A DNA stretch of 64,000 nucleotides, from the sequence record MZ234018.1, one strand, 5' to 3'. Each line of letters begins with the position of its first letter. Within the stretch, counting starts at the first letter, position 1. Positions 10,827 to 58,392 of this stretch are shown here, piece after piece. The position numbers and the translations under genes are program-made. Under the pieces are notes generated by a model. That model was not told where the DNA came from, did no database searches, and worked only from the letters and a program-made list of their open reading frames with translations. The stretch is from Escherichia phage vB_EcoM-101117BS1.

Positions 10827-10832
10827 GGATAT

Positions 10833-11093
10833 ATGATTAACATCAATTCAAAATATTTAAATCGTCTAATAGATGGTATAAGGAAGCATACTAATAAGCA
10901 AGATAATCTTAATGTTATGGTAACAGGAGCTGAGCTCCTTCATAAGCTTTATCTTATAAGTGATACTATATTAGCAATTAAACGAATTGAAAAACAATCA
11001 TATCACAGTAATACAGATACGGTAATTACACTAGATGAAAGTGTCTGTAAATTACTAATTAAATTTGAGGAAGCTATTCGTGGAAATAACTAA
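10833..11093 (+). CDS. hypothetical protein (86 aa)
   Basis: ATG with GAGGA RBS. Confidence 0.55.
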   Translation: MININSKYLNRLIDGIRKHTNKQDNLNVMVTGAELLHKLYLISDTILAIKRIEKQSYHSNTDTVITLDESVCKLLIKFEEAIRGNN

Positions 11094-12829: not shown

Positions 12830-13330
12830 ATGATTAAAATTAATACTACGTATCAAATGAAAAAACCGTCTGAAATTGATTTCCAGACAATGTCGAATAC
12901 GACTGATAGCAAGTTTTGGGAACTTCTTGGTACAACTGGCGGATATCCTTTTACTGTTATTAGTGTTAATAGCGGAATTCTCATTGGTACAGTGTACATG
13001 GAAATTAGAAACTATTATGGAAGGGTATCATCATTCATCATCTATGAAGAAGATTTCAATTTATTGACAGAAATTGAAAAAGAAGAACAAGAAAAATCCC
13101 ATATTGATATGGATTTAGTTTCTATGTATGTAACACCAGTTGAAAAAATTGAAGACCCGACTGATTTGTTGTGTAAGGCAGTTTATATTCGTCGTCCATT
13201 CGCGAATCCGATTGGCGGTTGGGTAACTGATCAGTGGATTGAAGATGGTGTTGAACTTCTGAACGTAGTTCATGCTGGAGAGTACTCTGTAGTTCCTCGC
13301 AGCGCAGTGATTAATGTTCGTGTAAGCTAG
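12830..13330 (+). CDS. hypothetical protein (166 aa), shares C-terminal domain with 13404-13895
   Basis: C-terminal TDQWIEDGVELLNVVHAGEYSVVPRS. Confidence 0.6.
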   Translation: MIKINTTYQMKKPSEIDFQTMSNTTDSKFWELLGTTGGYPFTVISVNSGILIGTVYMEIRNYYGRVSSFIIYEEDFNLLTEIEKEEQEKSHIDMDLVSMYVTPVEKIEDPTDLLCKAVYIRRPFANPIGGWVTDQWIEDGVELLNVVHAGEYSVVPRSAVINVRVS

Positions 13331-13360
13331 TTTACAAACTCTTGGGACCAGAGTATAATG
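13330..13360 (+). promoter_or_regulatory. phage early promoter
   Basis: GTTTAC 13330-13335, 18-bp spacer, TATAAT 13354-13359. Confidence 0.6.
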
Positions 13361-13403
13361 GTCCTGCGGAGTATAAAATCTTTTTAACAAGTGAGAGATA
13401 ATT

Positions 13404-13895: not shown

Positions 13896-13908
13896 AGTTT
13901 AAAATTTT

Positions 13909-13950
13909 TCATAAAACTATATACATCAGTAGTTGATTATGGTACTATAT
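13909..13950 (+). promoter_or_regulatory. early promoter within a repeated promoter/leader cassette (degenerate copy)
   Basis: ttttcataaaac...TGGTACTAT followed by conserved leader atcaactactgatacag. Confidence 0.45.
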
Positions 13951-13991
13951 CAATATCAACTACTGATACAGAAAATAACTTGGAGAATAAA

Positions 13992-14261
13992 ATGGAAAAC
14001 TTAATTATCATCGAGCAATCTTTCAATGATTATGGTATGGCTTATGGTTATCGTGCGATAATGGAAGATTCTCGTGGATGTGTTATCGATATTGCTGAAT
14101 GTAAAGATTTACTGCAGCTTTTGAAGATTGTTCGTAAAAATTGGGATTGTGAAAACATTAAAGCTCGTGTTGTAACGGAAGAAGAAACTGTTTTTCATGA
14201 TGTAAAATTCGCTAAAGGTGCTGCTACTCTTCTGAAACGTATCGCTCCACTGTTTAATTAA
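13992..14261 (+). CDS. hypothetical protein (89 aa)
   Basis: ATG 13992 after TGGAG RBS; ORF-track start 13980 is a TTG. Confidence 0.55.
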   Translation: MENLIIIEQSFNDYGMAYGYRAIMEDSRGCVIDIAECKDLLQLLKIVRKNWDCENIKARVVTEEETVFHDVKFAKGAATLLKRIAPLFN

Positions 14262-14490: not shown

Positions 14491-14915
14491 TGGCTATTAG
14501 ATTTGAAGTTAATAAATGGTATCAATTTAAAAATAAACAAGCTCAAGAAAATTTTATTAAAGACCATACTGATAACGGAATTTATGCACGACGTTTAGGT
14601 ATGCATCCTTTTAAAATTTTAGATGTTGACCATCTTGGTCGTCCTACTAAAATTGTGACATCTACTGGCACAGTTGGATATGCAACACATGGTGATATCC
14701 TTGACGAAAACTTTATCTGGCTCTCTACTAACGAAGCCGAGTTCTTTGATGAAGTTGAAAATCCATACCAGGCAGCTGAAGAGCAAGAGCAGGAAGAGAA
14801 AGAGCAAGAACAAATAGAAGATTTCACAGAATTTCCTGTCATGAAAGTTACTATTAAAAATAATGAACAGGCATGGTCCTTGTATCAAATGCTGAAAGCA
14901 CACTTTAAGGAATAA
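14490..14915 (+). CDS. acidic protein (141 aa), possibly GoF
   Basis: Length and position consistent with T4 goF; Glu/Gln-rich segment [12 protein letters not shown]. Confidence 0.45.
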
Positions 14916-15778: not shown

Positions 15779-15804
15779 TTCCCGAAACCAAACGAGGATA
15801 AGTG

Positions 15805-17622
15805 ATGATTAAGAATGAAATTAAAATTCTGAGCGATATTGAACATATCAAAAAGCGTAGCGGCATGTACATTGGCTCTTCAGCTAATGAAATGCATGAG
15901 CGCTTTCTGTTTGGTAAATGGGAAAGTGTTCAGTATGTACCTGGTCTTGTTAAGCTTATTGATGAAATTATCGATAACTCAGTAGATGAAGGTATTCGTA
16001 CTAAGTTTAAATTCGCAAATAAAATTAATGTTACTATTAAAAACAATCAAGTAACAGTTGAAGATAACGGTCGTGGTATTCCGCAGGCAATGGTTAAAAC
16101 ACCTACCGGTGAAGAAATTCCTGGTCCTGTTGCTGCATGGACTATTCCAAAAGCAGGTGGTAACTTTGGTGATGATAAAGAACGCGTCACTGGCGGTATG
16201 AATGGTGTTGGTTCTAGTTTGACAAACATTTTTTCTGTGATGTTTGTCGGTGAAACTGGTGATGGTCAAAATAATATTGTAGTTCGTTGTTCAAATGGCA
16301 TGGAAAATAAATCATGGGAAACTATTCCTGGAAAATGGAAAGGAACTCGTGTTACTTTCATTCCTGATTTTATGTCATTTGAAACTAATGAGCTGTCCCA
16401 AGTTTATCTTGACATTACATTAGATCGTCTCCAGACACTTGCTGTTGTTTATCCTGATATTCAATTTACCTTTAATGGTAAAAAGGTTCAGGGCAATTTT
16501 AAGAAATATGCACGCCAATATGATGAGCATGCTATTGTTCAAGAACAAGAAAATTGTTCTATTGCGGTTGGTCGTTCACCGGATGGTTTTCGTCAATTAA
16601 CATACGTCAATAACATTCATACTAAGAATGGTGGCCATCACATTGACTGTGTTATGGATGATATTTGTGAAGACCTTATTCCACAAATCAAACGTAAGTT
16701 CAAAATTGATGTGACTAAAGCACGCGTTAAAGAATGTTTGACTATCGTTATGTTTGTCCGTGATATGAAAAACATGCGATTTGATTCTCAAACTAAAGAG
16801 CGTTTGACTTCTCCATTTGGCGAAATTCGTAGTCATATTCAGCTTGATGCTAAAAAGATTTCACGCGCTATTCTAAATAATGAAGCAATTCTAATGCCGA
16901 TTATCGAAGCTGCTTTGGCTCGTAAATTGGCAGCAGAAAAAGCAGCTGAAACTAAAGCAGCTAAAAAGGCCTCTAAGGCAAAGGTTCATAAACATATTAA
17001 AGCGAATCTTTGCGGTAAAGATGCTGACACTACTCTTTTCTTGACTGAGGGTGATTCTGCTATCGGATATCTTATTGATGTTCGTGATAAAGAACTTCAC
17101 GGTGGTTATCCATTGCGTGGTAAAGTTCTTAATAGCTGGGGTATGTCATATGCCGATATGCTTAAAAACAAAGAACTATTTGATATTTGCGCAATCACTG
17201 GTCTAGTTCTTGGTGAAAAAGCTGAAAACTTGAATTATCATAATATTGCTATTATGACTGATGCTGACCATGATGGTCTAGGAAGCATTTATCCTTCTCT
17301 GCTCGGGTTTTTTAGTAATTGGCCAGAATTGTTTGAACAAGGACGAATTCGCTTTGTCAAAACTCCTGTAATCATCGCTCAGGTCGGTAAAAAACAAGAA
17401 TGGTTTTATACAGTCGCTGAATATGAGAGTGCCAAAGATGCTCTACCTAAACATAGCATCCGTTATATTAAGGGACTTGGCTCTTTGGAAAAATCTGAAT
17501 ATCGTGAGATGATTCAAAACCCAGTATATGATGTTGTTAAACTTCCTGAGAACTGGAAAGAGCTTTTTGAAATGCTCATGGGAGATAATGCTGACCTTCG
17601 CAAAGAATGGATGAGTCAGTAG
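15805..17622 (+). CDS. 39: DNA topoisomerase II large subunit gp39, fused 39+60 form
   Basis: 605 aa from ATG 15805; GHKL ATPase motifs plus TOPRIM (LTEGDSA, DADHDG) in one ORF. Confidence 0.95.
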   Translation: MIKNEIKILSDIEHIKKRSGMYIGSSANEMHERFLFGKWESVQYVPGLVKLIDEIIDNSVDEGIRTKFKFANKINVTIKNNQVTVEDNGRGIPQAMVKTPTGEEIPGPVAAWTIPKAGGNFGDDKERVTGGMNGVGSSLTNIFSVMFVGETGDGQNNIVVRCSNGMENKSWETIPGKWKGTRVTFIPDFMSFETNELSQVYLDITLDRLQTLAVVYPDIQFTFNGKKVQGNFKKYARQYDEHAIVQEQENCSIAVGRSPDGFRQLTYVNNIHTKNGGHHIDCVMDDICEDLIPQIKRKFKIDVTKARVKECLTIVMFVRDMKNMRFDSQTKERLTSPFGEIRSHIQLDAKKISRAILNNEAILMPIIEAALARKLAAEKAAETKAAKKASKAKVHKHIKANLCGKDADTTLFLTEGDSAIGYLIDVRDKELHGGYPLRGKVLNSWGMSYADMLKNKELFDICAITGLVLGEKAENLNYHNIAIMTDADHDGLGSIYPSLLGFFSNWPELFEQGRIRFVKTPVIIAQVGKKQEWFYTVAEYESAKDALPKHSIRYIKGLGSLEKSEYREMIQNPVYDVVKLPENWKELFEMLMGDNADLRKEWMSQ

Positions 17623-21881: not shown

Positions 21882-21898
21882 AAAAATTTCACAAAACA

Positions 21899-21928
21899 GT
21901 TTACATACCACAAGGACCGTGGTACTAT
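21899..21928 (+). promoter_or_regulatory. early promoter within a repeated promoter/leader cassette
   Basis: GTTTACA...TGGTACTATACAACTATCAACTACTGATAC. Confidence 0.55.
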
Positions 21929-21965
21929 ACAACTATCAACTACTGATACGGATTTGGAGAATAAA

Positions 21966-22229
21966 ATGAAATTTAAATTTTATTACGCTAAACATAAAAT
22001 AACTGATGAGTTTGTGTCAGTTGAATATTCTAGCGATGATGAAGGCATGATTTATACTCGCTTAGGATTATCGCATTGGGAGTCTGATCAGCCTTATTTT
22101 TCAACTCCCGAAGAAATTACACGCTTAATTAATGGTCATATGAATGACCACTGGAATGTAATTCTTTCAGATAGTCTTAAAGCGGCTATTAATAGTAATG
22201 AAATGAAAATCGCTGAGATTGAGCTATGA
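21966..22229 (+). CDS. hypothetical protein (87 aa)
   Basis: ATG 21966 after TGGAG RBS; ORF-track start 21954 is a TTG. Confidence 0.5.
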   Translation: MKFKFYYAKHKITDEFVSVEYSSDDEGMIYTRLGLSHWESDQPYFSTPEEITRLINGHMNDHWNVILSDSLKAAINSNEMKIAEIEL

Positions 22230-22312: not shown

Positions 22313-22407
22313 AAATTTTGAATTCTGTACTTATTGCTTGCGCGTGGTGGGTTGCACAGGTTTCAGCGGTAGTAGTTGGTATTCACATTTATTACGAATA
22401 TTTTTAA
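22309..22407 (+). CDS. tiny hydrophobic peptide (32 aa)
   Basis: ATGA overlap; MKILNSVLIACAWWVAQVSAVVVGIHIYYEYF. Confidence 0.3.
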   Translation: MKILNSVLIACAWWVAQVSAVVVGIHIYYEYF

Positions 22408-22414
22408 AAAAGTT

Positions 22415-22444
22415 GTTTACAAGACTGTTCTTCCGTGGTATTAT
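22415..22444 (+). promoter_or_regulatory. phage early promoter
   Basis: GTTTAC 22415-22420, 18-bp spacer, TGGTATTAT. Confidence 0.55.
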
Positions 22445-22472
22445 TACTCTATCAACTACGGAGGAACAGAAA

Positions 22473-22586
22473 ATGAAAAAGATTATTAAAGCTATATGGA
22501 ATGTAGTTATAATATTAATAGTTTTGAGTATATTCCCAATCGTTTTAATGATTGATGTATTAAACGCTTACTTTGGATTTATGTGA
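22473..22586 (+). CDS. tiny membrane peptide (37 aa)
   Basis: GGAGGA RBS; one hydrophobic helix. Confidence 0.4.
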   Translation: MKKIIKAIWNVVIILIVLSIFPIVLMIDVLNAYFGFM

Positions 22587-25828: not shown

Positions 25829-25833
25829 TTTTA

Positions 25834-25864
25834 GGGAGAGCCGAGGCTCTCCCTTTTTTATTTT
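25834..25864 (+). terminator. intrinsic terminator
   Basis: GGGAGAGCC-GA-GGCTCTCCC followed by TTTTTT. Confidence 0.75.
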
Positions 25865-25884
25865 AAAATTTTTTTCACAAAACG

Positions 25885-25924
25885 GTTTACAACCAAAGCA
25901 TACTGTGGTACTATACAACTATCA
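25885..25924 (+). promoter_or_regulatory. early promoter within a repeated promoter/leader cassette
   Basis: ttttcacaaaacGGTTTACA...TGGTACTATACAACTATCAACTACTGATAC. Confidence 0.6.
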
Positions 25925-25955
25925 ACTACTGATACAGAATTACGGAGATTAGAAA

Positions 25956-26591
25956 ATGTCTAAAGTAACTTACATCATCAAAGCTTCTAACGATGTTCTG
26001 AATGAAAAAACTGCTGCGATTTTAATTACCATTGCTAAGAAAGATTTCATTACAGCTGCGGAAGTTCGTGAGGTGCATCCAGATTTAGGTAACGCAGTAG
26101 TTAATAGTAATATTGGGGTGTTGATTAAAAAAGGCCTGGTGGAGAAATCTGGTGATGGATTAATCATTACTGGTGAAGCTCAGGATATTATTTCAAATGC
26201 AGCAACTTTATACGCGCAAGAAAATGCTCCGGAACTACTGAAAAAACGAGCAACTCGTAAAGCTCGTGAGATTACTTCTGATATGGAAGAAGATAAAGAC
26301 CTCATGTTAAAACTTTTAGATGAAAATGGATTTGTTCTTAAAAAGGTCGAAACTTATCGCAGTAACTATCTCGCTATTTTAGAAAAACGCACTCACGGAA
26401 TTCGTAATTTTGAAATTAACAACAATGGAAATATGCGAATTTTTGGATACAAAATGATGGAACATCATATTCAGAAATTTACTGACATCGGAATGTCATG
26501 TAAAATCGCTAAAAACGGTAATGTGTATCTTGACATTAAACGCTCGGCAGAAAACATTGAAGCTGTAATCACTGTAGCATCTGAACTGTGA
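25956..26591 (+). CDS. motA: MotA middle-transcription activator
   Basis: 211 aa; MSKVTYIIKASNDVLNEKTAAILITIAKKDFITAAEVREVHPDLGNAVVNSNIGVLIKKGLVEKSGDGLIITGEAQD. Confidence 0.9.
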   Translation: MSKVTYIIKASNDVLNEKTAAILITIAKKDFITAAEVREVHPDLGNAVVNSNIGVLIKKGLVEKSGDGLIITGEAQDIISNAATLYAQENAPELLKKRATRKAREITSDMEEDKDLMLKLLDENGFVLKKVETYRSNYLAILEKRTHGIRNFEINNNGNMRIFGYKMMEHHIQKFTDIGMSCKIAKNGNVYLDIKRSAENIEAVITVASEL

Positions 26592-42240: not shown

Positions 42241-42269
42241 GGGGACCCTAGAGGTCCCCTTTTTTTATT
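42241..42269 (+). terminator. intrinsic terminator after gene 32
   Basis: GGGGACC-CTAGA-GGTCCCC followed by TTTTTTT. Confidence 0.75.
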
Positions 42270-42290
42270 TCAAAAATTTTTCACAAAACG

Positions 42291-42320
42291 GTTTACATTC
42301 TTGTCCTTCCATGGTACTAT
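42291..42320 (+). promoter_or_regulatory. early promoter within a repeated promoter/leader cassette
   Basis: tttttcacaaaacGGTTTACA...TGGTACTATACAACTATC. Confidence 0.6.
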
Positions 42321-42363
42321 ACAACTATCGGCAATACTGCTGATGATTAAAGAGGAAAATAAT

Positions 42364-42594
42364 ATGGCTAAAGTTGATATTGACATCGTTGATTTTGAAT
42401 ATATTGAAGAGATTATTCGTAATCGTTATCCTGAACTTAGTATCACAAGTATTCATGATGATCCCAATTATTGCAATTTTTCTATTGTCATTGAAGGTCC
42501 TCTTGAAGACCTTACCCGCTTTATGACTAATGAATATTGTGATGGCATGGATTCTGAAGACGCAGAATTTTACATGGGACTGATTGAACAATAA
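42364..42594 (+). CDS. hypothetical acidic protein (76 aa)
   Basis: ATG 42364; ORF-track start 42301 is a TTG inside the promoter. Confidence 0.5.
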
Positions 42595-42640: not shown

Positions 42641-43027
42641 ATGGAAGTTGGAAAAACTTATATCATTAACCCTTTATTTAAAAATGACTTTGCTAACGAG
42701 TGCCGTTGCAATGTGATGATGCTAAATTTAATAGAGAAGCACGGACCTAGTTTTGTTGTAGATGAAATGGAAAGTGATGATTGTGCTGGTGAATGTGTGG
42801 TACGTGTAACTATGGAAGATGGCACTGAATACATGGCGGGTGGCCCACTTGAGACGTATTTTGAGATTTACTCTGAAGAATTCAAATACTTTACTGAGGT
42901 AACTTTAGAAAAGCCTCAATCCGCTAATGAAGGTATAGTTTCTGGCGTAACAAAAATTCACTGCATTGTTGACGAAAACAATGTAGATGAAATCATTGAA
43001 CTTTTGCGAAAAACTTTCAAAAAGTAG
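42641..43027 (+). CDS. hypothetical protein (128 aa)
   Basis: ATG with GAGGAAA RBS. Confidence 0.55.
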   Translation: MEVGKTYIINPLFKNDFANECRCNVMMLNLIEKHGPSFVVDEMESDDCAGECVVRVTMEDGTEYMAGGPLETYFEIYSEEFKYFTEVTLEKPQSANEGIVSGVTKIHCIVDENNVDEIIELLRKTFKK

Positions 43028-43056
43028 TTTACAACGGGCTATGGTAATGATACTAT
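43027..43056 (+). promoter_or_regulatory. phage early promoter
   Basis: GTTTAC 43027-43032, 18-bp spacer, TACTAT. Confidence 0.5.
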
Positions 43057-43082
43057 AGCCTTATCAACTTGAGGAGAATAAA

Positions 43083-43325
43083 ATGAGATTACAACGTCAG
43101 AGCATCAAAGATTCGGAAGTTAGAGGTAAATGGTATTTTAATATCATCGGTAAAGATTCTGAACTTGTTGAAAAAGCTGAACATCTTTTACGTGATATGG
43201 GGTGGGAAGATGAATGCGATGGATGTCCTCTTTATGAAGACGGAGAAAGCGCAGGATTCTGGATTTACCATTCTGACGTTGAACAGTTTAAAGCTGATTG
43301 GAAAATTGTGAAAAAGTCTGTTTAA
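43083..43325 (+). CDS. hypothetical protein (80 aa)
   Basis: GAGGAGAATAAA RBS. Confidence 0.55.
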   Translation: MRLQRQSIKDSEVRGKWYFNIIGKDSELVEKAEHLLRDMGWEDECDGCPLYEDGESAGFWIYHSDVEQFKADWKIVKKSV

Positions 43326-44162: not shown

Positions 44163-44181
44163 AATAACGCGTGGCGGAAAT

Positions 44182-44529
44182 ATGAATTTTAATTATTACC
44201 CTATTCTATTAGAAAAAGATGAGAAACAGCCAAAGTGGCAGGGTCCTCAGTTTATTAAAGGCGTTTATCAATTAGTAGTTCCTAAAGACAAGATTTATAG
44301 TAGTTGTTTCACTGAATCCGCTTGCAGTATTTTCGGTAATAGTTCTCCGTATTGGAATTTTGACATAAAGCTGGATAGAAATATTGATATTTGGTTGAAA
44401 GCTATGGATATTGGTAATATCACGTTTGATGAGAATAATTATCATATTATTGGTCGTTTTTCCAAACGCGGTAAAGAATTATATTTCACACCTGAAATTG
44501 AGAGAAAATTTGATGCTAAACCGTATTGA
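44182..44529 (+). CDS. hypothetical protein (115 aa)
   Basis: Between frd and td. Confidence 0.55.
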   Translation: MNFNYYPILLEKDEKQPKWQGPQFIKGVYQLVVPKDKIYSSCFTESACSIFGNSSPYWNFDIKLDRNIDIWLKAMDIGNITFDENNYHIIGRFSKRGKELYFTPEIERKFDAKPY

Positions 44530-44574
44530 TTATTTAGCTTCATAAAATGTATTATAATTTATATAAGGTACTAA

Positions 44575-46002: not shown

Positions 46003-48257
46003 TTAATGTTATCAAAAGTAGTGGTGTTTCTCAGAGCTTTGACCCACAAAAAATTATTAAAGTTTTATCTTGGGCAGCTGAAGGAACATCGGTAGATCCT
46101 TATGAATTATATGAAAATATTAAATCTTATCTCCGTGATGGAATGACAACTGATGATATTCAGACTATTGTCATTAAGGCCGCTGCGAATTCTATTTCGG
46201 TTGAAGAGCCTGATTATCAATATGTAGCTGCACGTTGTCTAATGTTCGCTCTTCGTAAGCATGTTTATGGGCAGTATGAACCACGTTCATTTATTGACCA
46301 TATTTCTTACTGTGTAAATGAAGGTAAATACGACCCTGAATTATTGTCAAAATATTCAGCAGAAGAAATTACATTTTTAGAATCAAAAATTAAGCACGAG
46401 CGGGATATGGAATTTACTTATTCCGGGGCGATGCAATTAAAAGAAAAATATCTAGTTAAAGATAAAACCACTGGTCAAATTTATGAAACTCCACAGTTTG
46501 CATTTATGACTATTGGAATGGCATTGCATCAAGATGAACCTGTTGATAGATTAAAACACGTTATCCGTTTTTATGAAGCAGTATCTACTCGACAGATTTC
46601 ATTGCCAACTCCTATTATGGCTGGTTGCCGTACTCCGACTCGACAGTTTAGTTCATGTGTTGTTATTGAGGCAGGTGATTCATTAAAGTCTATCAATAAG
46701 GCTTCCGCTTCAATTGTTGAATATATCTCTAAACGCGCTGGAATTGGTATTAACGTTGGTATGATTCGTGCTGAAGGTTCTAAGATTGGCATGGGTGAAG
46801 TACGCCATACCGGTGTTATTCCTTTTTGGAAACATTTTCAGACTGCTGTTAAATCATGCTCACAGGGTGGAATTCGTGGCGGCGCTGCTACTGCTTATTA
46901 TCCTATTTGGCATTTGGAAGTTGAAAATCTTCTCGTTTTGAAAAATAACAAAGGTGTAGAAGAAAACCGCATTCGTCATATGGATTATGGTGTTCAACTG
47001 AATGATCTAATGATGGAACGTTTTGGAAAGAACGATTACATTACTTTGTTCAGTCCACATGAAATGGGTGGAGAGCTTTATTATTCTTATTTTAAAGACC
47101 AAGACCGTTTCCGTGAATTATACGAAGCAGCAGAAAAAGACCCTAATATTCGTAAAAAGCGCATTAAAGCCCGTGAACTATTTGAATTGCTCATGACTGA
47201 ACGCTCAGGAACAGCAAGGATTTATGTGCAGTTCATTGATAATACGAATAACTATACTCCGTTTATTCGTGAAAAGGCACCTATTCGTCAGAGTAACTTG
47301 TGCTGTGAAATTGCTATTCCAACAAATGATGTGAATAGCCCTGATGCTGAAATTGGATTGTGCACGTTATCTGCATTTGTGTTGGATAACTTCGATTGGC
47401 AAGACCAAGATAAAATTAATGAATTAGCAGAAGTTCAAGTTCGTGCTCTTGATAATCTTTTGGATTACCAAGGATATCCAGTTCCTGAAGCAGAAAAAGC
47501 TAAAAAGCGTCGAAACCTTGGTGTAGGTGTTACTAACTATGCAGCTTGGCTGGCAAGTAACTTTGCTTCTTATGAAGATGCTAACGATTTAACACATGAA
47601 CTATTTGAGAGATTACAGTATGGACTCATTAAAGCATCCATTAAGCTCGCCAAAGAAAAAGGACCTTGTGAATATTATTCAGACACTCGTTGGTCTCGAG
47701 GCGAATTACCTATCGACTGGTACAATAAAAAGATTGACCAAATCGCAGCTCCAAAATACGTTTGTGACTGGTCGTCGCTGCGGGAAGACCTTAAGCTCTT
47801 TGGCATCCGTAATAGCACATTATCAGCACTTATGCCATGTGAGTCATCTTCCCAAGTTTCTAACAGTACAAACGGTATCGAGCCTCCACGTGGACCAGTC
47901 TCTGTTAAAGAATCAAAAGAGGGCTCCTTTAATCAAGTCGTGCCCAATATTGAGCATAACATAGACCTCTATGATTATACATGGAAATTAGCTAAGAAAG
48001 GTAATAAACCTTATCTTACGCAGGTAGCTATTATGCTGAAATGGGTATGTCAATCAGCTTCAGCGAATACATATTATGACCCACAGATTTTTCCAAAAGG
48101 AAAGGTTCCAATGTCAATAATGATTGATGACCTTTTGTATTTTTGGTATTTTGGCGGAAAAAATTTCTATTATCATAATACCCGTGATGGTTCTGGTACT
48201 GATGATTATGAAATAGAAACTCCAAAAGCTGAAGATTGTTCATCCTGTAAATTATGA
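45993..48257 (+). CDS. nrdA: ribonucleotide reductase large subunit
   Basis: 754 aa; class I RNR motifs including NLCCEIAIP. Confidence 0.95.
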   Translation: MQLINVIKSSGVSQSFDPQKIIKVLSWAAEGTSVDPYELYENIKSYLRDGMTTDDIQTIVIKAAANSISVEEPDYQYVAARCLMFALRKHVYGQYEPRSFIDHISYCVNEGKYDPELLSKYSAEEITFLESKIKHERDMEFTYSGAMQLKEKYLVKDKTTGQIYETPQFAFMTIGMALHQDEPVDRLKHVIRFYEAVSTRQISLPTPIMAGCRTPTRQFSSCVVIEAGDSLKSINKASASIVEYISKRAGIGINVGMIRAEGSKIGMGEVRHTGVIPFWKHFQTAVKSCSQGGIRGGAATAYYPIWHLEVENLLVLKNNKGVEENRIRHMDYGVQLNDLMMERFGKNDYITLFSPHEMGGELYYSYFKDQDRFRELYEAAEKDPNIRKKRIKARELFELLMTERSGTARIYVQFIDNTNNYTPFIREKAPIRQSNLCCEIAIPTNDVNSPDAEIGLCTLSAFVLDNFDWQDQDKINELAEVQVRALDNLLDYQGYPVPEAEKAKKRRNLGVGVTNYAAWLASNFASYEDANDLTHELFERLQYGLIKASIKLAKEKGPCEYYSDTRWSRGELPIDWYNKKIDQIAAPKYVCDWSSLREDLKLFGIRNSTLSALMPCESSSQVSNSTNGIEPPRGPVSVKESKEGSFNQVVPNIEHNIDLYDYTWKLAKKGNKPYLTQVAIMLKWVCQSASANTYYDPQIFPKGKVPMSIMIDDLLYFWYFGGKNFYYHNTRDGSGTDDYEIETPKAEDCSSCKL

Positions 48258-48308
48258 TATAATTTGACTCACGGACGAGTCACCAACTATTAACTAAGCG
48301 GAAAATTT

Positions 48309-49487
48309 ATGAGCACAGTTTTTAATACAAATCCAGTTGATGTTTTAAAAGAACCTATGTTTTTTGGTTCAGGTCTTGGTATTGCGCGTTATGATATTCA
48401 ACGCCATAAAGTTTTTGAAGATTTAACCGAAAAGCAATTATCATTTTTCTGGCGTCCTGAAGAAGTAAACTTAATGATGGATGCTGCACAGTTTAATAAG
48501 CTTCCTCAGTATCAGCAAAATATTTTTACTAATAATCTGAAGTATCAATCACTTTTGGATAGCATTCAGGGTCGTGCGCCGTCTGCTGTACTTATGTCAT
48601 TAATTTCAGACCCAAGCCTTGATACATGGGTTGCTACGTGGACTTTTAGTGAAACTATTCACTCTCGTTCATATACACATATCATGCGAAATCTTTATAC
48701 TGATCCATCGAAGGTATTTGATGAGATTGTATTAGATGAAGCTATTATGAAACGTGCTGAATCCATTGGACGTTATTATGATGATGTTCTGACTAAAACT
48801 CGTTATTGGGAAAACGCTAAAGCTGATATCGAATACCAAAAAGAAATTAATGCAGACGAAGATGTTATTGAAGATGCTATTGAGCATGAGACATATTGGA
48901 AGCGTGAGCTAATGAAATCTCTTTACCTCTGTTTGCATGTAATCAACGCATTGGAAGCTATTCGTTTTTATGTATCTTTCGCATGTACCTTTAACTTCCA
49001 TAAGAACATGGAAATTATGGAAGGCAATGCAAAGATTATGAAGTTCATTGCACGTGATGAGCAGCTTCATCTTAAAGGTACACAATATATTATTCGTCAA
49101 CTTCAATCTGGTACTGATGGCGATGAATGGGTTAAAATTGCTCAAGAGTGTGAACAAGAAGCAGTTGATATTTTCATGGAAGTTAACCGCCAAGAAAAAG
49201 ATTGGGCAGTTCATTTATTTAAAGATGGCGATGTTCCTGGATTAAATACAAATAGCATGTGGAGCTTTATTGATTACTTAACTGTATCTCGTATGAAACA
49301 GTGTGGTCTTCCATGCCCAATTACCGATGCTCCGGTTAAACATCCATATCCTTGGATTCGTGAATATCTTAATTCTGATAATGTTCAATCCGCGCCACAA
49401 GAAGTAGAACTGTCATCTTACCTTGTTGCACAGATTGATAATGATGTTGATGATAAAGTTATGATGAGTTTTAAAAAATATTTTTAA
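48309..49487 (+). CDS. nrdB: ribonucleotide reductase small subunit, uninterrupted
   Basis: 392 aa in one ORF; ferritin-like di-iron/tyrosyl-radical protein. Confidence 0.9.
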   Translation: MSTVFNTNPVDVLKEPMFFGSGLGIARYDIQRHKVFEDLTEKQLSFFWRPEEVNLMMDAAQFNKLPQYQQNIFTNNLKYQSLLDSIQGRAPSAVLMSLISDPSLDTWVATWTFSETIHSRSYTHIMRNLYTDPSKVFDEIVLDEAIMKRAESIGRYYDDVLTKTRYWENAKADIEYQKEINADEDVIEDAIEHETYWKRELMKSLYLCLHVINALEAIRFYVSFACTFNFHKNMEIMEGNAKIMKFIARDEQLHLKGTQYIIRQLQSGTDGDEWVKIAQECEQEAVDIFMEVNRQEKDWAVHLFKDGDVPGLNTNSMWSFIDYLTVSRMKQCGLPCPITDAPVKHPYPWIREYLNSDNVQSAPQEVELSSYLVAQIDNDVDDKVMMSFKKYF

Positions 49488-51102: not shown

Positions 51103-51105
51103 GCT

Positions 51106-51135
51106 GTTTACAAGTCCCTCATGTTGTGTTACAGT
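51106..51135 (+). promoter_or_regulatory. phage early promoter
   Basis: GTTTAC 51106-51111, 18-bp spacer, TACAGT. Confidence 0.45.
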
Positions 51136-51166
51136 AGTCTTACTGACATAACATGAGGACTTTATG

Positions 51167-51670
51167 ATGGATTTACAGCTTATTACTACTGAAATGGTCG
51201 TTGAAGCATACGGTGATACTACAGATGGGATTTCTGTATTCAAAGGAAATCGTCGAGTTGGATATATCACCGATCTTAAGAAAGATTTAGCTAAGCAAGT
51301 CAAGCGGAAAACGACCATTAAAGAATATCGAAATCGTCGTCTTGAGCAAGCCCGTGATATGCTTCCTGATGCGGTTGAGGAGATGAAAGTCTTTTTAGAA
51401 AATCAACTCGCTAAGTATGATTGTGAAGTGTTCATTAATCAGACTCAACCTAATGTTCATATCAATAGCTGTAAATGCTATATTATCGTTAATCCTTTAA
51501 CGGGAAAACATCGTCTTGGAATTAGTAATCCAAATCGTAGCGCATCAGATATGGCAGAAGATGTTGCGGCATGCTTTAAAATTTCTAAATCTCCGGCGGA
51601 ACATCATATTTTAATTAACGGTCTTTCTCAAGACGATATTATAGAGGTTATTAAAACTTTATGCAATTAA
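51167..51670 (+). CDS. alc: Alc (inhibitor of host transcription on cytosine-containing DNA)
   Basis: 167 aa; MDLQLITTEMVVEAYGDTTDGISVFKGNRRVGYITDLKKDLAKQVKRK. Confidence 0.8.
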   Translation: MDLQLITTEMVVEAYGDTTDGISVFKGNRRVGYITDLKKDLAKQVKRKTTIKEYRNRRLEQARDMLPDAVEEMKVFLENQLAKYDCEVFINQTQPNVHINSCKCYIIVNPLTGKHRLGISNPNRSASDMAEDVAACFKISKSPAEHHILINGLSQDDIIEVIKTLCN

Positions 51671-52534: not shown

Positions 52535-53760
<1,226 letters not shown>

Positions 53761-57876: not shown

Positions 57877-57896
57877 TCCAAAGATTGCACAAAGTT

Positions 57897-57926
57897 GTTT
57901 ACAGTATGACTCCTTTGTGATAGTAT
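57897..57926 (+). promoter_or_regulatory. phage early promoter
   Basis: GTTTAC 57897-57902, 18-bp spacer, TAGTAT. Confidence 0.5.
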
Positions 57927-57953
57927 TATCTTACACAAACAAAGGAGAATAAA

Positions 57954-58322
57954 ATGAAAATCAATCTTAACTCATACATCAAAGGTAAAGACCACGACGG
58001 CTATAAAGCTATCGAAACTAAAGAACTTCAGTGGCACTTATACAAAGAACAATTTGAATTTGTAGGTTGCATGACTCCTGAAGGTCCTTCTGATGATTTC
58101 TCTTGGAAAATAATGTTAACTAACTTTTTTACTGGAGATACATACGAATTAAAAACTTTGATTCTTGGTAAAATTCGCTGTGAGACTTATGAAGATAAAG
58201 AAACTGGTTACTCTGAAGATGTTACGTGGTATCAAAATGGTCGTATTACCGCTGACCTCTTGATTGAAAAAATGAAAGCCAAAGGTGAATTAAATTTAGA
58301 TAATTGGATTAAAGTTGCATAA
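57954..58322 (+). CDS. hypothetical protein (122 aa)
   Basis: AAAGGAGAATAAA RBS. Confidence 0.6.
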   Translation: MKINLNSYIKGKDHDGYKAIETKELQWHLYKEQFEFVGCMTPEGPSDDFSWKIMLTNFFTGDTYELKTLILGKIRCETYEDKETGYSEDVTWYQNGRITADLLIEKMKAKGELNLDNWIKVA

Positions 58323-58326
58323 AATA

Positions 58327-58355
58327 GTTTACTTTGGTACAGGATATGATATTAT
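58327..58355 (+). promoter_or_regulatory. phage early promoter
   Basis: GTTTAC 58327-58332, 17-bp spacer, TATTAT. Confidence 0.5.
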
Positions 58356-58392
58356 ATACCTGTACCGCAATTAAACATCTCGGAGAATAAAA

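Follow-up and report, generated by a model that had tools for sequence, protein, structure and literature searches.

A near-identical early-promoter block at four variable gene joints of a T4-like phage

The intergenic DNA ahead of motA in Escherichia phage vB_EcoM-101117BS1 (positions 25834–25955 of the window, by which is meant the whole stretch of 64,000 nucleotides of record MZ234018.1 that was analysed) carries a sequence block that recurs at three other intergenic sites, and the question that it raises is what the block is for and what keeps its copies alike. A preliminary description had seen in the four sites repeated cassettes of terminator, early promoter and leader, similar to the promoter-early-stem-loop elements (PeSLs) of T4-type genomes, and had added that the conserved leader could be a common regulatory or RNase target. 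The reading favoured here, which we hold to be very probable, is that the block is a strong early promoter with its ribosome site, doubling as a homology patch for phage recombination.

The window belongs to a T4-like phage (Tequatrovirus) and is 97–99% identical to T4-type genomes, in an orientation opposite to that of the T4 map (positions ~1–20080 correspond to T4 20000–1, and 20080–64000 to T4 168903–125000). The 2.5-kb stretch round the motA cassette is matched by hundreds of Tequatrovirus genomes at 95–99%, and the 122 nt at 25834–25955 are 99.2% identical to T4 163603–163724. All four sites are read on the + strand: site 1 (13909–13991) lies between motB and cef and precedes an 89-aa ORF (phrog_3720); site 2 (21886–21965) lies between denB and ndd and precedes an 87-aa ORF (phrog_2390); site 3 (25834–25955) follows motA.1 and its terminator and precedes motA; site 4 (42270–42363) follows the terminator of gene 32 and precedes frd.3. 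In position and orientation they stand ahead of genes that T4 expresses early, and the orthologs of motA and frd.3 are confirmed (MotA by Pfam and PHROGs, the frd.3 product by the Pfam family Phage_FRD3). The window also differs from T4 in its homing elements: it has no mobA / 60.1 / gene 60 split of the topoisomerase gene 39, which is a single 606-aa ORF, and segG, the td intron, the nrdB intron and mobE, all present in T4, are missing. These differences, at window positions 15802–17622, 41212/41248, 45123/45124, 48253–48309 and 48982/48985, are ordinary presence/absence.

Anatomy of the four sites and their promoter class

The order of elements can be read directly in the sequence and is the same at each site: an A/T-rich UP element (TTTTTTCACAAAAC), the –35 GTTTACA, a 14-nt spacer, the extended –10 TGGTACTAT, the discriminator ACAACT, the leader, a ribosome site GGAG or GAGG, and ATG. 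That one block stands at all four places was borne out, as the pattern TGGTACTATACAACTATC was found in the window at 13940, 21920, 25906 and 42312, always on the + strand and with 3, 0, 0 and 0 mismatches, respectively, against 0.06 matches expected in shuffles; the site at 13909–13991, with the three mismatches and a –35 that reads ATATACA, had been called degenerate. A gap of 15 nt had been claimed between the two halves of the block, and a search with that pattern gave no match because the actual distance between GTTTACA and TGGTACTAT (TGG) is 14 nt. The UP sequence TTTTTTCACAAAAC with upstream A/T runs is present at 4/4 sites, the A+T content of the 25 nt before the –35 being 80–84% at sites 2–4 and site 1 being A/T-rich by direct reading. 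The motif of the T4 early promoters (–35 GTTTAC(A/T), 17-nt hexamer spacing, TGn and TAnnnT) is exact at sites 2–4 and departed from at site 1 in the –35 already mentioned. GGAG or GAGG stands 6–8 nt ahead of the ATG at all four sites; the TGGAG/GGAG previously given as their ribosome site describes three of them, the fourth having GAGG.

The start of transcription was placed by a convention taken over from T4, whose GenBank and RefSeq records carry no promoter features; one T4 name, Pe133295 (a misc_feature), set against the position of its –10, puts the start seven bases beyond the end of the –10 hexamer. The predicted starts are thus 13955, 21935, 25921 and 42327, each being the A that opens ATCAAC or ATCGGC. 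Counted from them, the shared sequence is shorter than the about 25 nt of leader that had been proposed, since it reaches +17 and, in the frd.3 copy, only +3. The sequence ATCAACTACTGATAC is exact at 13955, 21935 and 25921 and is missing from the fourth site (42270–42363), which reads ATCGGCAATACTGCTGATG / ATCGGCAATACTG after ACAACT, whereas the three other copies are identical over +1 to +15 and two of them over +1 to +17.

Whether the four sites are more similar than unrelated early promoters would be was checked against the 16 other early promoters of the window, and they are closer to each other than these. Identity among the four sites was 0.71 in the UP element (0.38 among the other 16), 1.00 in the extended –10 (0.72), 0.75 in the discriminator (0.37) and 0.64 over +1 to +17 (0.33), while the spacer gave 0.29 in both groups.

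At site 1 the promoter (13896–13954) consists of the UP region, the degenerate –35 at 13919–13925 and the extended –10 TGGTACTAT at 13940–13948; the leader (13955–13991) begins ATCAACTACTGATACAG and carries GGAGAATAAAA from 13982, and the ATG is at 13992. Its orthologs in T4, T2, BGP and PM133 differ by the length of an upstream A/T run and by one downstream leader base only. Site 2 has its promoter at 21882–21934, after denB, with the UP element, the –35 GTTTACA at 21899–21905 and the extended –10 at 21920–21928, followed by a leader (21935–21965) made of ATCAACTACTGATACGG and then GGAGAATAAAA from 21956, and by the ATG at 21966. Site 3 opens with an intrinsic terminator after motA.1 (25833–25864), whose hairpin at 25833–25854 has 9 pairs (6 GC) and a loop of 4 and whose T run merges into the UP element; the motA early promoter (25865–25920) follows, with the –35 at 25885–25891, the extended –10 at 25906–25914 and the discriminator ACAACT, and the motA leader (25921–25955) consists of ATCAACTACTGATACAG and then GGAGATTAGAA from 25944, the motA ATG being at 25956. 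Site 4 is built in the same way after gene 32: an intrinsic terminator (42241–42266), identical in T4, with the hairpin GGGGACCCTAGAGGTCCCC at 42241–42259 and a T run; the frd.3 early promoter (42267–42326), with the UP element, the –35 at 42291–42297, the extended –10 at 42312–42320 and ACAACT; and a leader (42327–42363) with a 7-bp 5'-terminal hairpin at 42327–42344 (–7.6 kcal/mol, one of its pairs lost in T4), the Shine-Dalgarno sequence GAGG at 42352–42355 and the frd.3 ATG at 42364. The blocks had been said to stand often just after a GC hairpin, and this is so at sites 3 and 4, where the hairpin is followed by a T run, and not at sites 1 and 2. One related member with a short leader, which the preliminary description had passed over, lies at 22389–22480 (+) and reads GTTTACA-N14-TGGTATTAT tactct ATCAACTACGGAGGAACAG; there is complementarity between its spacer and the ribosome site.

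As to their class, about 20 sites of the window, on the early-gene strand, fit the T4 early-promoter (Pe) pattern. T4 early promoters are described as UP/–35/TGn/–10 promoters with additional consensus regions (Nolan et al., 2006, PMC1524935; Hinton, 2010, PMC2988021), and their logos have been compared across T4-like phages in the literature. The four sites share with them GTTTAC at –36 to –31, an A-rich UP element, the extended –10 with TGn, the placement upstream of early genes and the extra consensus outside the hexamers, site 3 being, at 99% identity, the motA promoter of T4. Nothing essential sets them apart from this class, of which they form the most consensus-like sub-family, with the –10 TACTAT instead of TATAAT; site 1 differs in its degenerate –35 and in being placed inside a 13-bp inverted repeat. 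The sub-family has about 8 near-identical copies per genome, T4 included, where the –10 elements are at 167062, 163649, 146851, 70672, 55360, 53919 and 27056 and the promoters before imm.1, e.8, nrdC.10 and nrdC.8 are among its members; the window holds the four copies and related ones. By BLAST it was found in 541 phage records, mostly at 6–8 places per genome (4–8 among the genomes listed), and an exact-pattern scan of IMG/VR with the 30-nt core gave 8 loci, a number insufficient for analysis at the population level. When 32 T4 early promoters were put together, their consensus included cTATCAAcTa at –2 to +8, also without the sub-family, so that the first bases of the "conserved leader" are a weak feature common to the whole class, and the remainder, TACTGATAC(A/G)G, is specific to the sub-family.

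Outside the genus, the Mosigvirus phiC120 has one nearly intact cassette of the sub-family (piece L017, 1201–1290), with ATCAACTACCGATACAG and TTGGAGAATGAAATG, ahead of an ORF of unannotated function; a single copy was found in that genome, and it is possibly a trace of cassette-borne transfer.

The leader as a ribosome site and as a candidate regulatory element

The proposal that the leader is an RNase target holds for its 3' end, where the GGAG ribosome site fits the RegB/S1 consensus, and is unsupported for the 5' block, which has no stable or conserved structure. The cleavage consensus of RegB with S1 in T4 early mRNAs is given as GG*AGRAYARAA (Durand et al., 2006, as cited in the review PMC3014915). 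The sequence GGAGAATAAAA fits it exactly at 13982 and 21956, the motA site (25944) fits at 10/11 positions, and at site 4, which has no GGAG, such a consensus site is absent. Sites 1–3 have the same placement, at intergenic ribosome sites of early transcripts, as the RegB/S1 sites of T4 early mRNAs, and their leaders are predicted to be unstructured there; the likeness is limited to the 3' end of the leader and does not extend to the conserved 5' block. A ribosome site that is an RNase target is in any case known biology.

The 5' block itself could be read in another way, namely that the segment –6 to +17 (ACAACT ATCAACTACTGATACAG) is a dedicated cis-regulatory element, be it a shut-off operator, an RNA tag or a 5' stability hairpin, which marks a co-regulated immediate-early subset. 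The identity of the three window copies noted above would agree with such a role, as would the occurrence of the block before motA, imm.1, e.8, nrdC.10 and ndd.6 in T4 and once in a Mosigvirus; the block furthermore contains a 5+5 palindrome, TATCA-N5-TGATA, and a hairpin starting at +1 is possible in all four leaders. The folding of the RNA argues against it: at sites 1–3 the 5' hairpin of the shared block has 4 bp and –0.6 kcal/mol (z = –1.3), no better than shuffles, an Rfam scan of the whole window gave no match, and the natural variants ACTACCGATAC (phiC120), ATCAACTGATAC (T2, A6-6) and ATCAACACTGATAC (BGP) break the pairing without compensation. The sequences thus do not behave as a structured cis-regulatory leader RNA, and a 5' hairpin acting as an mRNA stabiliser at sites 1–3 was rejected on the same values. 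The first 8 bases, moreover, belong to the general early-promoter consensus, and between orthologs the block has been changed or substituted no less often than the spacer, which looks neutral; strong purifying selection would be expected to leave the opposite pattern. We regard a dedicated cis-element as unlikely. A version of it in which –6 to +17 is the binding site, as DNA or as nascent 5' end, of a putative factor for the shut-off of early promoters, a mechanism described as incompletely understood (PMC3014915), seems slightly less likely still; if it were true, the block would mark a co-regulated set including motA, imm.1, e.8 and nrdC.10.

Mosaic modules and variable gene content at the joints

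The reading of the block as a promoter that also serves as a patch of homology draws on two comparisons, between copies within a genome and between orthologous sites of the window, T4, T2, BGP and PM133. Within one genome the spacer is at background identity (0.29) and both flanks are at 0.7–1.0, and a spacer that is unrelated between copies with near-identical flanks excludes that the block was simply duplicated as a whole in recent times. When orthologs in the five genomes are compared, the pattern is reversed, the spacer being stable and the leader altered or replaced. Among phages about 95% identical to each other, the spacer of the frd.3 promoter exists as two unrelated alleles: in T4 and BGP the spacer is aagcataaagcttta, which is that of the T4 nrdC.10 promoter, and in the window, T2 and PM133 it is at(t/c)cttgt(c/t)cttcca, which is that of the T4 e.8 promoter, with 0–2 differences in 15 between these alleles and the spacers of the other promoters. 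The linker GATACGGATTTGGAGAATAAAATG is found with three different spacers, and the spacer aagcataaagcttta with two different leaders. The contrast of spacer and flanks, the frd.3 alleles and the reticulate linkers together are the signature of recombination between paralogous cassettes, and to judge from these patterns paralogous cassettes have crossed over within the two conserved blocks, in addition to being selected for promoter strength.

It might be thought that selection is enough, each copy having been driven independently to the optimal promoter with no recombination between copies. The conserved segments are indeed known contacts of RNA polymerase (UP, –35, TGn, –10, discriminator), the spacer is unconserved between copies and all early promoters have the weak consensus at +1 to +8. 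Pure convergence of this kind is nevertheless very improbable in view of the reticulate sharing of linkers and spacers, of the two frd.3 alleles that each resemble the spacer of another promoter, and of ORF insertions bounded by duplicated leaders, which are described below.

Gene content at the joints bears on the same question, as content that did not vary among relatives would have spoken against modular exchange; gene or module content in fact differs at all four joints among these close relatives. Behind site 1 the window and T2 have an intact ORF, which carries the same internal deletion of ~200 bp in T4, BGP and PM133, while the promoter core and the palindrome are unchanged in all of these. 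At site 2 one and the same promoter leads into any of three leader/ORF modules, which part from each other after ATCA; the leader exists in a long state, a variant with a 3-nt deletion and a short state, ATCAGCTACGGAGG, and leader and downstream ORF are replaced in BGP, PM133 and T2. The ORF of the window type is found in 268 records and an unrelated T2/PST type in 118, BGP and PM133 have a third allele, and in T4 almost nothing is left. What separates the window from T4 itself at sites 1 and 2 is a microhomology deletion in the first ORF, between short A-rich repeats near the start codon, and not an exchange between cassettes. After both sites T4 retains no more than the region of the start codon, joined to the 3' end of the ORF whose intact form the window has; the fusion is in frame after site 2 (the last 8 codons being left) and out of frame after site 1.

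Site 3 has three leader states among the five genomes, and the motA.1–motA interval contains a 71-aa ORF in BGP and a different 75-aa ORF in PM133, each followed by a second stem-loop and early promoter; in PM133 a 21-nt stretch of the leader is directly repeated on either side of the inserted ORF. The BGP ORF is present in 17 records and the PM133 ORF in 142, among them members of Dhakavirus at 94–99% identity. They are assigned to phrog_6200 and phrog_10955 and lie at 14604–14819 of the BGP piece (L015) and 14565–14792 of the PM133 piece (L016), a place equivalent to window 25955/25956; the Dhakavirus genomes with copies 94–99% identical are JS98, IME08 and JS10. The ORF that follows site 2 in T2 is distantly related (33% identity over 33 aa) to the one that BGP has behind site 3, and one ORF family is therefore found at different promoter joints.

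The break points lie within the cassette, inside the leader and at differing positions, and crossovers inside the element are seen at sites 2, 3 and 4. When all differences between the window and T4 are counted, 6/46 break ends fall in the cassettes, which make up 3.5% of the window, against 1.6 expected (p = 0.005), a value calculated against whole-window coverage and still including any general preference of indels for intergenic DNA. In most single-ORF indels relative to T4 both ends are in short A-rich repeats at gene starts (AAATGAAA, TAAATGAAAA, ATGATTAA), as at window 10827–11057, 21972–22196, 44168–44571, 52542–52854 and 14000–14199, and small genes are gained or lost precisely from start codon to start codon.

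These results agree with the PeSL model. PeSLs were defined in RB49 and phi1, with mini-circle crossovers mapped between –10 and ATG (Arbiol et al., 2010, PMC2839356), and then for the pair T4/PST as TTTACW-N17-TAYWAT with a stem-loop upstream and Shine-Dalgarno sequence and ATG downstream (Comeau et al., 2014, PMC4122927), the swap of ndd.4/.5, which adjoins site 2, being shown as an example in the latter work. Sites 3 and 4 have the same composite of terminator stem-loop, early promoter, Shine-Dalgarno sequence and ATG, and the sites analysed here share with PeSLs the multiplicity of similar copies in variable regions and the insertion, deletion and replacement of ORFs with crossovers between –10 and ATG. 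The idea of PeSL-like cassettes flanking variable ORFs is thus supported, as all four joints vary, the breaks are inside the cassette and the literature describes the like. In its full sense it applies to sites 3 and 4, which have every sequence feature, and not to sites 1 and 2, which have no upstream GC stem-loop and so are plain early promoters. Conserved early-promoter repeats also bracket the small, highly variable genes of the internal-protein (IP) loci of T-even phages, which are different loci, outside the window; these repeats were proposed to confine shuffling there (Repoila et al., 1994, as cited in PMC2839356 and PMC4122927).

The phenomenon at the four sites is therefore already known, T4 early promoters being textbook matter and the idea of cassettes as linkers having been published in 2010 and extended to T4/PST in 2014; the present analysis confirms this picture independently on a new genome. 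Going beyond the published PeSLs, the –35/–10 spacer alone is exchanged, that is, modules are shuffled within the promoter, with an exchange as fine as a 14-nt spacer between two conserved blocks. A second detail added here is the circulation of the small ORFs that follow these promoters between Tequatrovirus and Dhakavirus, at 94–99% identity. In annotation, the blocks can serve to mark early transcription units and the likely places where accessory genes turn over.

In the mechanism that we propose, the host RNA polymerase would fire from the four sigma-70 early promoters immediately after infection, a promoter activity expected from T4. Upstream of motA (25833–25955) and frd.3 (42241–42363) the promoter is set directly on the T run of the preceding terminator and so forms an insulated terminator–promoter–RBS cassette, a PeSL, and at sites 1–3 the GGAG ribosome site would later be cut by RegB with ribosomal protein S1, as in T4. 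Two blocks are conserved, one of about 25–37 nt round the –35 and one of about 32 nt from the –10 to +17. They may have arisen as the best-fitting version of the general early-promoter consensus, which extends to about +8, and by reaching a length sufficient for the phage's own homologous recombination, reported for T4 to need less than 50 bp of homology (PMC2839356). Recombination at the blocks, again as known from T4, would then keep the copies alike, reshuffle the promoter modules and allow small ORFs to be inserted, deleted or replaced. That the copies are instead autonomous mobile elements (miniature-transposon or integron-type sites) moved by a dedicated recombinase, as their number per genome, the 94–99% identity of the same small ORFs in two genera and the possible helper protein raised by Arbiol et al. 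(PMC2839356) might suggest, is the least credible reading and was rejected, because the copies have no terminal inverted repeats, target-site duplications or associated recombinase gene around them, their break points vary in position, and so short a homology is enough for T4 recombination.

Inverted repeats straddling early-promoter –10 elements

Six early promoters of the window, site 1 among them, lie inside strong inverted repeats that straddle the –10 (392–450, 13915–13975, 22412–22475, 51103–51170, 57895–57960 and 58325–58385), and further straddling repeats are found at 13325–13385 and 43022–43085. One arm is in the –35/–10 spacer and the other in the discriminator and leader; at site 1 the repeat spans 13925–13967 (+), with arms at 13925–13937 (ATCAGTAGTTGAT) and 13955–13967 (ATCAACTACTGAT), and the read-through RNA folds at –20.2 kcal/mol (z = –6.0). 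Over the six promoters the fold energies of the read-through RNA range from –15 to –28 kcal/mol and z from –3.2 to –6.0, and the ribosome site is covered by the 3' arm in three of them (22439, 51130 and 57921). Nine or more complementary bases were counted in 5/20 promoters, against 3% of mismatched spacer/leader pairings.

It is possible that transcripts reading through from upstream are masked or processed in this way and that those initiated at the promoter are open. The late-promoter genes e, soc, 49 and I-TevI of T4 are known to have a similar arrangement; here it is at early promoters, for which no description of straddling repeats was found in the literature searched. Several single differences from T4 within the straddling repeats leave most of the fold energy in place, and the promoter with its –10 at 43051, a shorter example, has arms, in spacer and discriminator, that differ jointly from those of four relatives with the hairpin kept, reading GGGCTAT/ATAGCC in the window and GGGTAGTA/TATTACCC in T4, T2, BGP and PM133.
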